Assembly (NCBI GenBank): GCA_963821325.1
Contig: CAWGDC010000004.1
Coordinates: 15,462 to 79,461 of the forward strand
DNA from: an uncultured Actinomycetes bacterium
GTDB taxonomy: Bacteria > Actinomycetota > Acidimicrobiia > IMCC26256 > PALSA-555
DNA: 64,000 bases
Direction of reading: 5' to 3'
The translations under genes and the position numbers were made by a program. The notes below the pieces were generated by a model. It made no database searches. It saw only the letters and a list, made by a program, of their open reading frames with translations, and was not told where the DNA came from. Shown here one piece after another: positions 62,282 to 64,000 of the stretch (its first letter is position 1; every line of letters starts with the position of its first letter).

Positions 62282-62623
62282 TCAGTCTCGGGCCTTGCGG
62301 GCGCCGCGGGCCATCCAGGTCAACGCGCCGCCGGCGCCGAGCGCGACGACGACGATCCCGTACGGCGCCCACGACCAGTCGCCCCGGAAGGTGCTGCCCG
62401 TCTCCGCTTGGAGTACCCGCAGGGCGCCGACGCCGAGCAGCACCACCCCGAACCCGAGCAGCAGCGCCCCGGCCAGCCCCATGAGGATGTAGCGCCCGAG
62501 GCTCTTCAGCGGGACGACCGTCTCCTGGCGGACGTACGCGATGACGAGGTCGCGCAACTCGAGCACGAGCTGCGGGAGCGAGCCGGGGCCGGCGTCGGCC
62601 GGCGTGTCCGTGGGTGCCGTCAT
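62282..62623 (-). CDS. Actinobacterial holin-like (DUF1469-type) membrane protein
   Basis: L.DLV.AYVRQET..PLK.LGR followed by two TMs. Confidence 0.7.
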   Translation of the reverse strand: MTAPTDTPADAGPGSLPQLVLELRDLVIAYVRQETVVPLKSLGRYILMGLAGALLLGFGVVLLGVGALRVLQAETGSTFRGDWSWAPYGIVVVALGAGGALTWMARGARKARD

Positions 62624-62674
62624 CGGCGCGGAGTCTACGGTCGCGCCGCGCCGAACCCGCTAGTGGGTAGTGGG

Positions 62675-63859
62675 TCAGTTTCGACCCTGCGCAGCGTGGT
62701 GCTGCTGGGCCCTACCGGCCCGGAGGATGTTGCGGGCCGCGTTGGTGTCGGCATGGGCTTGATGCCCGCAGGCCTGGCACTCGAACACGGCGCCGCGCCG
62801 GTTCCCACCCGAGACGTGCCCACACGCGGCGCACGTTCGGCTGGTGTTGCGGGGATCCACCGCGATGACGACTCGACCGGCGCTTTCAGCCTTGTACGAG
62901 ATCATCGCGAGGAGCTGTCCCCACCCGGCATCGTGGATACAACGGTTCAAGCCTTGCTTCGCGGTGGCGCCGTTGTGCTCGTAGCCGCCGGCCCCGTCGG
63001 GTCGGGGCGCGGGACGACGCAACAGGTTCGGGATCGCGAGCTGTTCGTGCACGATGACGTCGTAGTCGTTCACCAGGCGTCTCGAGAGCTGATGGGCGAA
63101 ATCCTTGCGACAGTCCCGGATGTAGCGGTGCGCGGCACCGACTCGTTCCCGGGCCCGGCGTCGATGCTGGGAGCCGCGCTGGGTGCTAGCCAGGGCCCGC
63201 TGCGCCTGGGCCAGGCGCTGGGCGCCCCGGTGGCCGTGGCGGGGGTTGGTGTGCAGGGCCCCGGCGCTGGTGGCGACCAGGACCCCCACGCCGAGGTCGA
63301 TGCCGACCTGGCGGCCCGTCGACGCCCGCGGCTCGGCGGGAACCTCGACGCAGCGGATGCTCACCCACCAACGTCGACCTTCTCGACGCACGGTGATCGC
63401 CTAGGGCGTGCCGCGAACCGGGCGATGCAACCGAACCCTGATGTGCCCGATGCCGTGCAGGCACAACCGCCGACACGACCCGTCCAGCCGCCAGCCGGAC
63501 CGGTCCTCATACTGCAAGGAGTCCCAGCGGCTCCGGGAACGAAAACGCGGGAACCCTGGGCGCTGCCCCGCCCGACAGCGACGAAAGAACCCGGCGAACG
63601 CCCAATCGAGGCGCTTGAGCGTCCCCCGACACACCGTCACGCCACACGCCAGCACCTCGGGACGCGACCCACGCAACTGCGTCAAGGTGCGGCACTGCTC
63701 GACGTAGGAGACCGAGCGCTGCTCCCACCGCCACGCCCCCCGACGCTCCTCCAACGCCGCGTTGTACAGCTCGCACTGCAAACCCACCAAGTGCTCCAAC
63801 GCGGCACGCTGGCGCACCGTCGGGCTCAACAAGAACCGAAACGTCCGACACCGACACAT
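62675..63859 (-). pseudogene. tnpB: TnpB RNA-guided nuclease with one in-frame TAG at 63401-63403
   Basis: FRFLL.PT..Q, LYNAALEER, GFPRFR, RuvC-I GIDLG, RuvC-II VHEQL, CAAC/CQAC zinc finger, RuvC-III ADTNAARNI; frame continues across GTP*AITVRREG. Confidence 0.92.
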
Positions 63860-63866
63860 CACCAAG

Positions 63867-63888
63867 AACCTAAACACCACCTATGACA
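63867..63888 (-). promoter_or_regulatory. PafBC/RecA-NDp-like promoter of tnpB, leaderless
   Basis: TGTCAT-N10-TAGGTT-N7-ATG. Confidence 0.55.
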
Positions 63889-63918
63889 CCACGAACACCC
63901 AAACTGACCAACTACCCG

Positions 63919-64000
63919 CTAGTGCGTCGGCGTCGCCGGTGACGGCACCAGCGTCGACGGCGCCGGCGCGTTGGGGAACGTGGCGAGGATGCCGGCGAAG
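63919..64000 (-). CDS. 3' end of an upstream gene (partial)
   Basis: ...FAGILATFPNAPAPSTLVPSPATPTH* with GC3-rich codons; its TAG is part of the CTAG target. Confidence 0.55.
   Translation of the reverse strand, partial: FAGILATFPNAPAPSTLVPSPATPTH

Follow-up and report, generated by a model that had tools for sequence, protein, structure and literature searches.

A tnpB gene in a non-autonomous inverted-repeat element that shares its ends with IS1-type transposons of Acidimicrobiia

The accepted role of TnpB is to restore insertion sequences (IS) of the IS200/IS605 and IS607 families after their scarless excision, and in both families the fixed target motif of the transposase doubles as the target-adjacent motif (TAM) of the nuclease. 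Here, we analyzed a tnpB gene that lies between inverted repeats in a stretch of 64,000 nucleotides from an uncultured Actinomycetes bacterium of the class Acidimicrobiia (GenBank assembly GCA_963821325.1, contig CAWGDC010000004.1, positions 15,462 to 79,461 of the forward strand). This whole stretch is referred to as the window, and coordinates without a prefix are positions within it. The element occupies positions 62666-63916 (1251 bp) and is a real, discrete, mobile unit bounded by inverted repeats. Sequence comparison indicates that it is very probably a non-autonomous IS1-type element with tnpB as cargo, which would be moved in trans by a DDE transposase.

According to passages of a 2026 review (PMC13565253), elements of the IS200/IS605 family (IS1341 group) have neither terminal inverted repeats (TIRs) nor target-site duplications (TSDs) and insert beside a fixed motif of 4-5 nt. 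For IS607, the same passages describe a serine recombinase TnpA, no TIRs, no TSDs, and ends in GG. The window element resembles the IS1341 group, including ISDra2 TnpB, in that the proteins align over their full length and the expected place of a guide RNA is the 3' end of the gene, at the right end (RE) of the element. It differs by its inverted-repeat ends, by an 8-bp duplication, and by an insertion that is not beside a fixed 4-5-nt motif. From IS607 it differs in that both a TIR and a TSD are present.

Associations of TnpB with DDE transposases are known as well. Altae-Tran et al. (2023, PNAS; PMC10691335) distinguished six DDE-associated TnpB branches, DDE-1 to DDE-6, with inverted terminal repeats. 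They also described solo TnpBs whose ends are nearly identical to those of transposase-bearing elements and inferred their movement in trans; where the main text treats these branches, it names IS630 only (DDE-6). The review cited above sums up the DDE-associated set as ISL2, IS630, and IS1031, calls such a pairing rare in prokaryotes, and argues that such a nuclease is of little benefit to DDE transposons (PMC13565253). Thus, the general idea of a DDE-linked TnpB with inverted repeats and movement in trans is not new but already published, as the main text of PMC10691335 makes clear. The family described here shares with those elements, as far as they are presented there, the inverted terminal repeats, a TnpB 3' end at most 250 bp from the element end, and solo TnpBs with the ends of transposase elements; it differs in that no transposase and tnpB were found together in one element. 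Distinct features are the IS1 partner, the variable 8-bp duplication, a scaffold built on the transposase repeat, an orientation-specific site motif, and companion miniature inverted-repeat transposable elements (MITEs) that may be guide-RNA genes. The clade itself could nevertheless be among the published DDE branches. The literature searched contained no report pairing TnpB with the IS1 family, and an IS1-type pairing is unusual for such a gene.

Boundaries, terminal repeats, and target duplications

The ends of the element were set by paralogues, by orthologues at other loci, and by empty sites. The TIR proper comprises 16 bp, GGTAGTGGGTCAGTTT, and its two arms agree at 15 of 16 positions. 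In tnpB orientation, the RE repeat, which gives GGTAGTGGGTCAGTTT when read inward, lies at 62666..62681 on the minus strand, and the left-end (LE) repeat, the reverse complement of which is GGTAGTTGGTCAGTTT, at 63901..63916 on the plus strand. Outside the repeats, the 8-bp sequence CGCTAGTG is present twice without assigned strand, with the left copy (62658..62665) adjoining RE and the identical right copy at 63917..63924. The stop codon of tnpB (TGA, 62675-62677) falls within the RE repeat, as had been noted in a preliminary description of the locus.

That description had proposed an 18-bp TIR with 16 matching positions and a target duplication of CTAG. Arms of 18 nt are indeed present at 62664-62681 and 63901-63918, agree at 16 of 18 positions, and are flanked by CTAG at 62660-62663 and 63919-63922. 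However, the outer 2 bp of each arm do not belong to the repeat proper, and the duplication has a length of 8 bp. It consists of the outer 2 bp of the 18-nt arm, CTAG, and the 2 bp beyond, so that CTAG is its centre.

The genome that contains the window (G000) holds two further full-length copies with 79% and 72% identity, plus fragments. In a three-way alignment of the own-genome copies, the similarity breaks off abruptly at ...GACCCACTACC on the tnpB 3' side, beyond which the flanks are unrelated. Copies at other loci in related genomes align to positions 1566-2817 of L001, which is repeat to repeat, with identities of 89% (G001), 88% (G002), and 76% (G009). The homologous copies, whose boundaries had been singled out as a test of the proposal, end exactly at the repeats. 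The same applies to the second such test, the empty site in relatives, which has one copy of the duplicated bases. In two genomes of the same genus, G001 and G002, the window flanks are contiguous and contain one GCTAGTG. We also compared contigs of four metagenome runs with the window as DNA. Peat metagenome contigs of runs X2, X3, and X5 (two studies) join 62663 to 63922/63924 and represent the empty site, and contigs of run X1 span both occupied junctions with no differences. As a side observation, the elements of G000 and G001/G002 are 88-89% alike at different loci, and the flanking chromosomal genes 80-84%. The higher likeness of the element hints at a transfer or movement after the species split or at a stronger constraint on the element.

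Relatives of an intact orthologue comprised 80 loci from species-representative genomes and 80 metagenome loci; according to the record titles, the closest genome loci are from metagenome-assembled genomes (MAGs) of Acidimicrobiia/Acidimicrobiales. The scan for ends covered 35 rows, comprising 32 of the 80 genome loci, two paralogues from G000, and the window itself, as well as the complete set of 80 metagenome loci. The RE motif turned up in 26 of the 35 rows and 54 of the 80 metagenome loci, the LE motif in 19/35 and 45/80, and both in 18/35 and 30/80. The other 48 genome loci, from Nonomuraea, Microbispora, cyanobacteria, proteobacteria, and others with at most 56% identity, were covered by a generic inverted-repeat scan only, in which the GGTAG repeat was not seen. 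Among the related elements with both ends and readable flanks (n = 46), the duplication was perfect (8/8) in 16 and matched at 7/8 or more positions in 19, compared with a best match of 4/8 for a control 8-mer located 30 nt further out. After deduplication, 19 verified insertions were obtained, and the duplication sequence was different in every one. Thus, they represent independent events without a CTAG target. Variants of the repeat shift at both ends together (GGCCTAG in L211 and L098, GGCTCA in L179), which is expected if a protein reads both ends. Genome-wide, the 17-mer repeat with up to three mismatches occurred at 23 sites, compared with 4 for the reversed control.

These results bear on two other explanations of the junctions. 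The first assumes that an IS5- or IS701-like DDE transposase targeting CTAG produced a 4-bp duplication next to the 18-bp repeat. In the window, CTAG is indeed found next to the 18-nt arms, but among the 19 insertions it occurs only in that of the window. The base preceding GGTAG at LE varies and always equals the eighth duplicated base, and the partner with these ends, described below, scores as IS1 family rather than IS5/IS701. With 8-bp duplications that are distinct in all 19 cases, the family differs from IS5/IS701 members with a CTAG-like 4-bp duplication, and the earlier comparison with these families was mistaken; we give this explanation practically no chance. The second starts from the 11-bp direct repeat ACCCGCTAGTG, which is found at each junction, and from a 40-bp palindrome formed by the joined ends. 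Both had been put forward as an att-like site for a site-specific recombinase, which would include the serine recombinases of the IS607 type. The 11-mer, however, resolves into the 8-bp duplication plus ACC, which belongs to the repeat end on the right and to the flank on the left, and this ACC part is chance bases. At other loci, the flanks share just 8 bp, which are non-palindromic and site-specific, and the empty sites contain no repeat-like sequence beyond the target. Moreover, IS607 is described without inverted repeats or duplications in the relevant passages of PMC13565253. The att-site alternative was therefore dropped as barely credible.

Candidate IS1-type partner transposase

Within the element, tnpB is the sole long open reading frame (ORF) of known function. 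There is no transposase gene of its own, in agreement with the tnpB-only, inverted-repeat-bounded, non-autonomous unit described initially. The element is therefore a non-autonomous derivative and not an IS in the strict sense. A search for an autonomous partner with the same ends, which had been recommended at the outset, yielded IS1-type elements that are decayed in G000 and intact in relatives. In G000, an element of 1.95 kb with the same repeat at both ends (G000:C5:142806-144757) is flanked by the perfect 8-bp duplication GACGGGTG and contains a multiply frameshifted IS1-like transposase, the sole IS1-type gene with these ends in the window assembly. In relatives, an open transposase frame of 283-291 aa lies between the same repeats and 8-bp duplications (G007, with GGCTCAAA; G016; L250; L260; L258). 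A scan of 28 loci of such DDE elements recovered both ends in 8, with a perfect 8-bp duplication in L239, L250, L252, and L260 and a 7/8 duplication in L258. The terminal repeat of 16-18 bp shared by tnpB and transposase elements is GGTAGTGGGTCAGTTTG.

The transposase encoded at L062:1473-2348 matched the Pfam family DDE_Tnp_IS1 with 36 bits (cut-off, 24.1), and close homologues are labelled 'IS1 family transposase' by JGI and NCBI. A table after ISfinder in PMC10425158 lists for the IS1 family ends of GGnnnTG, direct repeats of 8-9 bp, a DDE transposase, and a copy-and-paste/cointegrate mechanism. The repeat start GGTAGTG and the 8-bp duplication fit the IS1 row of this table. Thus, DDE_Tnp_IS1, the GGnnnTG ends, the 8-9-bp duplications, and non-autonomous derivatives with shared ends are features in common with the IS1 family and its MITEs as tabulated in PMC10425158. 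The window element differs in carrying tnpB where the transposase would be. The autonomous relatives differ as well: at 1.9-2.7 kb, with a single-ORF transposase and passenger ORFs, they exceed the 740-1180 bp given in the table (PMC10425158). None of the further ORFs in the autonomous elements is tnpB. The elements at L062:1464-3567 (G007) and L063:46-2718 (G016) measure 2.1-2.7 kb and have two to three passenger ORFs besides the transposase, one of which gave a weak match to DUF6941 (E = 0.0015, below the cut-off).

In our view, an IS1-family transposase encoded elsewhere would recognise the shared repeat GGTAGTGGGTCAGTTTG and move the tnpB element in trans. Mobilisation in trans by a DDE transposase, as anticipated in the preliminary description, is most likely, since the same ends bound elements with an IS1-family transposase.

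Several observations weigh against an IS1-type element of this kind. The NCBIfam model transpos_IS1 gave 59 bits, under its cut-off of 100, which places the transposase on a distant IS1 branch. No element with both an IS1 transposase and tnpB was found; tblastn with the intact DDE transposase hit the loci of the DDE elements themselves but none of the 80 genome tnpB loci (2.5-kb flanks), to which this search of tnpB loci was confined. The transposase is much rarer than the tnpB elements, with hits in 23 of 264 genomes of the order (E ≤ 1e-20), a tally that includes the unpublished genome G241, whose loci were left unused. Within the genus, it is present in 3 of 12 genomes and intact in only one. 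Many genomes with tnpB elements therefore show no partner, though the MAGs are only 54-100% complete. In addition, IS1 is listed as copy-and-paste/cointegrate, so there is no obvious need for a homing nuclease (table in PMC10425158). Finally, the RE and LE motifs were missed in 9 and 16 of the 35 rows and in 26 and 35 of the 80 metagenome loci, respectively. The missed ends are partly contig ends and partly decayed copies; L084 is 78% identical, yet without both ends.

Two observations touch on the repeat itself. MITEs of ~150 bp have the same inverted repeat and 8-bp duplications, for example at G000:C6:178160-178315 (L269:1501-1656) and at six other places in G000, and the same IS1-type enzyme would also move them. 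Furthermore, terminal repeats occur in head-to-head pairs at G000:C2:725813-725843 and G000:C6:85655-85681, with a 14+3+14-nt arrangement that is a perfect palindrome at C2. These two pairs, at which no matching 8-bp duplication was detected, might represent a minimal element, the remnant of a deletion, or the relic of a junction. The C2 pair lies just upstream of a tRNA-like sequence.

Structured RNA at the right end and the insertion-site motif

The final ~70 nt before RE are far more conserved than the protein needs, and the nucleotides are still conserved in several relatives in which the stop codon comes a few codons earlier. We aligned the last 170 nt to RE from 70 distinct copies (alignment A3) and identified three hairpins, which form an omegaRNA-like 3' scaffold at 62666..62721 on the minus strand. 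Hairpin 1 (62707-62721) has the sequence GGGCC-GGUAG-GGCCC, hairpin 2 (62691-62705) covaries, and hairpin 3 (62672-62687) pairs GGGUC with GACCC, the latter coming from the repeat itself; all three are read on the minus strand. Of 1050 alignment cells, 93.4% were paired, compared with 28-46% when the partners were slid by 1-3 columns. The covariation score was 0.234 versus 0.093 in shuffles, and 0 of 500 shuffles reached 0.234. In hairpin 2, about half of the sequences have G-C in place of C-G (33 to 32), and 15 have G-C or U-A in place of A-U. Hairpin 3 tracks the repeat variants, and RNAalifold independently gave the cores of hairpins 1 and 2. Approximately 27 cells, summed from the pair types, are G-U pairs. 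They occur on the tnpB-sense strand only, which fits an RNA. Complementarity exists between the terminal CUACC (62666-62670) and the GGUAG loop of hairpin 1, which is invariant, with 98.3% of the cells paired and one compensatory change; a pairing between loop and end is a proposal drawn from this complementarity.

Guide RNAs of TnpB are described within 250 bp of the transposon end in the main text of PMC10691335. Position and size of the scaffold match these guide RNAs, which counts for an omegaRNA. The structured RNA at RE fits an omegaRNA scaffold; its transcription, its use of a guide, and a nuclease activity of TnpB are inferred. The covarying hairpins, the third of which uses the repeat, bear out the earlier suggestion of a structured RNA overlapping the tnpB 3' end and the TIR. 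The presumed omegaRNA would lie inside and just past the 3' end of tnpB, and the RE repeat would double as its last hairpin and 3' tail. It would take its guide from the flank, the duplicated bases first. The preliminary description had likewise derived the guide from the flank, and this is implied by the placement of the scaffold; the start it gave was 2 nt too far out and has been corrected to the minus strand from 62665 downward. The predicted guide-encoding flank is thus 62646..62665 (minus strand), comprising the duplication and the next 12 nt read on from RE, a prediction based on TnpB biology and the scaffold position. Other data speak less clearly for an omegaRNA. Hairpin 1 and the loop-to-end pairing hardly vary and are conserved rather than proven, the single-sequence fold of the 255-nt 3' region is not unusual (z = -1.42), and Rfam gave no match at E ≤ 1 for 62500-64000.

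Hairpins near RE, together with the canonical ISDra2-like protein and an NCBIfam IS200_TnpB score of 191 bits (below the cut-off of 425), could also be expected of an ordinary IS200/IS605 element of the IS1341 type that is moved as a single strand by a Y1 TnpA. The hairpins would then serve TnpA, and the likeness to IS1 would be coincidence. Against this stand the 8-bp duplications and inverted ends, in a family that passages of PMC13565253 describe as lacking TIRs and TSDs. LE has no matching hairpin on the same strand but is an inverted copy of RE, and the restriction of G-U pairs to the sense strand fits RNA. Moreover, Y1_Tnp (PF01797) was detected in none of the 12 genomes of the genus, including G000 (82.5% complete), and in 3 of 41 relatives, with hits for the positive controls. 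An ordinary IS200/IS605 element is thus very improbable. It is also conceivable that a classical tnpB element landed in an IS1-type MITE, so that the IS1 ends would be an outer shell unrelated to TnpB function. MITEs with these ends do exist. However, the tnpB stop and the last RNA hairpin lie inside the repeat, hairpin 3 covaries with the repeat variants, only ~36-57 nt separate the LE repeat from the tnpB start, and the alignment of the own-genome copies revealed no conserved second, inner pair of ends. Such nesting is highly unlikely, and even if the element began in this way, the two parts are now fused.

The target sites share a short motif. In tnpB orientation, the window has CG 5' of the LE-side duplication (63925..63926, minus strand), at the conserved G(-1)/C(-2) position of the family, which is TAM-like. 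Of 55 unique LE flanks, 50 had G at -1 and 30 had C at -2, and G(-1) was also present in 18 of the 19 duplication-verified insertions. The first duplicated base was C in 50 of 55 LE flanks and 69 of 72 unique RE flanks. At duplication position 8 and at +9, the same unique flanks lacked a mirror-image preference, and the constant bases of the target are confined to G(-1) and C(+1). This G|C motif lies where a TAM would be: at the empty site, it is followed by the bases that the RE RNA would carry, and at the occupied site, these bases are preceded by ..ACC. That the motif represents the TAM and the right-flank nucleotide is a tentative assignment, to which we give somewhat less than an even chance. 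Alternatively, the RE-type end might impose a preference for such targets, or the motif might result from a survival filter.

The MITEs show the same motif. MITE matches, 42 in total, were distributed over 9 of the 12 genomes in the genus and, among 41 genomes searched, were confined to the genus of the window. Their RE-proximal ~95 nt are nearly invariant (alignment A4) and contain the hairpins CCCUC-GGUAG-GAGGG, with the loop of tnpB hairpin 1, and GCC-UUCG-GGC as well as the repeat hairpin. Among 21 MITEs with an RE-type end, 20 have a C after the RE-like end, and both G(-1) and C(+1) are present in 8/8 MITEs with a duplication of at least 6/8 (n = 8). Rfam gave no match for a MITE at E ≤ 1, and the single-sequence fold of the MITE core had a z of -0.39. 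To judge from their sequences, the MITEs may be tnpB-less guide-RNA genes.

Instead of forming an omegaRNA, the hairpins might act as DNA, that is, as sites for the transposase or a host factor, or as a terminator of tnpB, with G|C reflecting the target sites that the transposase prefers. In favour of this, the repeat to which the transposase must bind overlaps with hairpin 3, and the MITEs display the site motif without tnpB. However, both ends of the DDE-only elements are of LE-type sequence, and the hairpin sequence specific to RE is missing from them. Nor is the motif strict in these elements: C follows ~13 of 31 ends, and in the five verified elements, 3 of 10 end-orientations show G|C (by eye, small sample). 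The strand-specific G-U pairs and the position and size, which match TnpB guide RNAs at most 250 bp from the end as described in the main text of PMC10691335, argue in the same direction. A role at the DNA level is therefore unlikely.

It is possible, although we lean slightly against it, that TnpB and its guide RNA are functionally wired to the duplication-making IS1-type DDE transposon. In such a wired system, the terminal repeat would be part of the omegaRNA, forming its last hairpin, and base pairs would form between the outermost CUACC and the GGUAG loop of hairpin 1. As its right-flank nucleotide, the scaffold would include the C that always begins the duplication, and the G (often CG) 5' of the LE-side duplication would be the TAM. 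The RE RNA would match the empty site exactly (TAM, duplication, and flank), and the occupied site would be spared. The MITEs would act as guide-RNA genes without a tnpB of their own and would rely on TnpB supplied in trans. If true, this would be a bacterial counterpart of Fanzor in transposons with TIRs and TSDs, with a near-minimal TAM.

A precedent for the adaptation of a guide-RNA scaffold to another transposase was described by Yoon et al. (2023, NAR; PMC10711439), who reported a right-flanking nucleotide for the IS607 element ISXfa1 and a TSD built into the scaffold for eukaryotic (Fanzor) systems; in the parts of the paper concerned, bases recognised by the transposase lie within the guide RNA. 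The constant C after RE and the repeat-based hairpin of the window family look analogous to these scaffolds (PMC10711439). The ISXfa1/Fanzor flanks described there, however, are constant (GG, TA, or similar), whereas the 8-bp duplication of the window family is constant only in its first base (PMC10711439). Furthermore, those systems work with a serine recombinase or are eukaryotic, whereas the present bacterial system has a DDE transposase as its partner. Three questions could be addressed naturally with this family, namely, how the scaffold of a guide RNA is remodelled to suit the ends of another transposase, whether a TAM can shrink to 1-2 bases when the transposase does not supply it, and whether MITEs that are only guide-RNA genes exist.

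TnpB protein, decay in the window genome, and the insertion site

The tnpB gene covers 62675..63880 on the minus strand and comprises 401 codons from a GTG at 63880; relatives point to a start at the ATG at 63859. It is a pseudogene because of one in-frame TAG (63401-63403). Pfam searches of the window TnpB gave OrfB_IS605 (71.6 bits), Cas12f1-like_TNB (85.8 bits), and, weakly, HTH_OrfB, and the NCBIfam model guided_TnpB gave 242.8 bits (cut-off, 100). Residues 9-387 of the intact orthologue match the solved ISDra2 TnpB chains in the PDB with an E of ~5e-40, which is a full-length match. The window translation contains GIDLG, VHE, and HADTNA as well as four cysteines, and D194, E278, D377, C349, C352, C367, and C370 are invariant across 10 intact relatives. 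We take the D/E/D positions to be the RuvC catalytic triad and the four cysteines (CxxC..CxxC) to be a zinc finger. A canonical ISDra2-like TnpB has evidently long been carried by an IS1-type element, as indicated by the dozens of diverged copies across Acidimicrobiia MAGs and the 19 independent insertions. With respect to annotation, such tnpB-only genes should not be filed by default as IS200/IS605. If the intact orthologues are active, they would be compact nucleases of ~400 aa from a high-GC host with a possibly very relaxed TAM, and hence of practical interest.

The metagenome contig L159 is 96.3% identical at the nucleotide level over 2718 nt to the LE flank and element of the window. 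In this orthologous copy and in L043, Lys occupies the position of the window's TAG codon within open frames of 400 aa. The codon in L159 is AAG, which is the repair from TAG to AAG that had been envisaged earlier. The nonsense codon of the window is thus a recent, strain-level lesion. With a nonsense codon in tnpB and a decayed transposase, the family looks inactive in the window genome, the assembly of which is 82.5% complete, and the system would be decaying there through this codon and the frameshifts in the IS1-type transposase. Compared with 62660-64000 and beyond, L159:1-2718 represents the same insertion as the window and diverges from the window flank a few bases past RE, owing either to a rearrangement or to contigs having been joined at the repeat during assembly.

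The insertion point coincides with the stop codon of a 475-aa PBP4/DacB-like gene (L001:2820-4247, minus strand) with an STEK motif; the name PBP4/DacB-like is our own reading of the sequence, including this motif. Insertion at this stop codon would have generated the 8-bp duplication CGCTAGTG, the right copy of which holds the TAG stop of the gene (63919-63921, minus strand). As the duplication regenerates this stop, the PBP4/DacB-like gene stays whole. The next gene downstream, at 62282-62623 on the minus strand, is now separated from the PBP4/DacB-like gene by the element.

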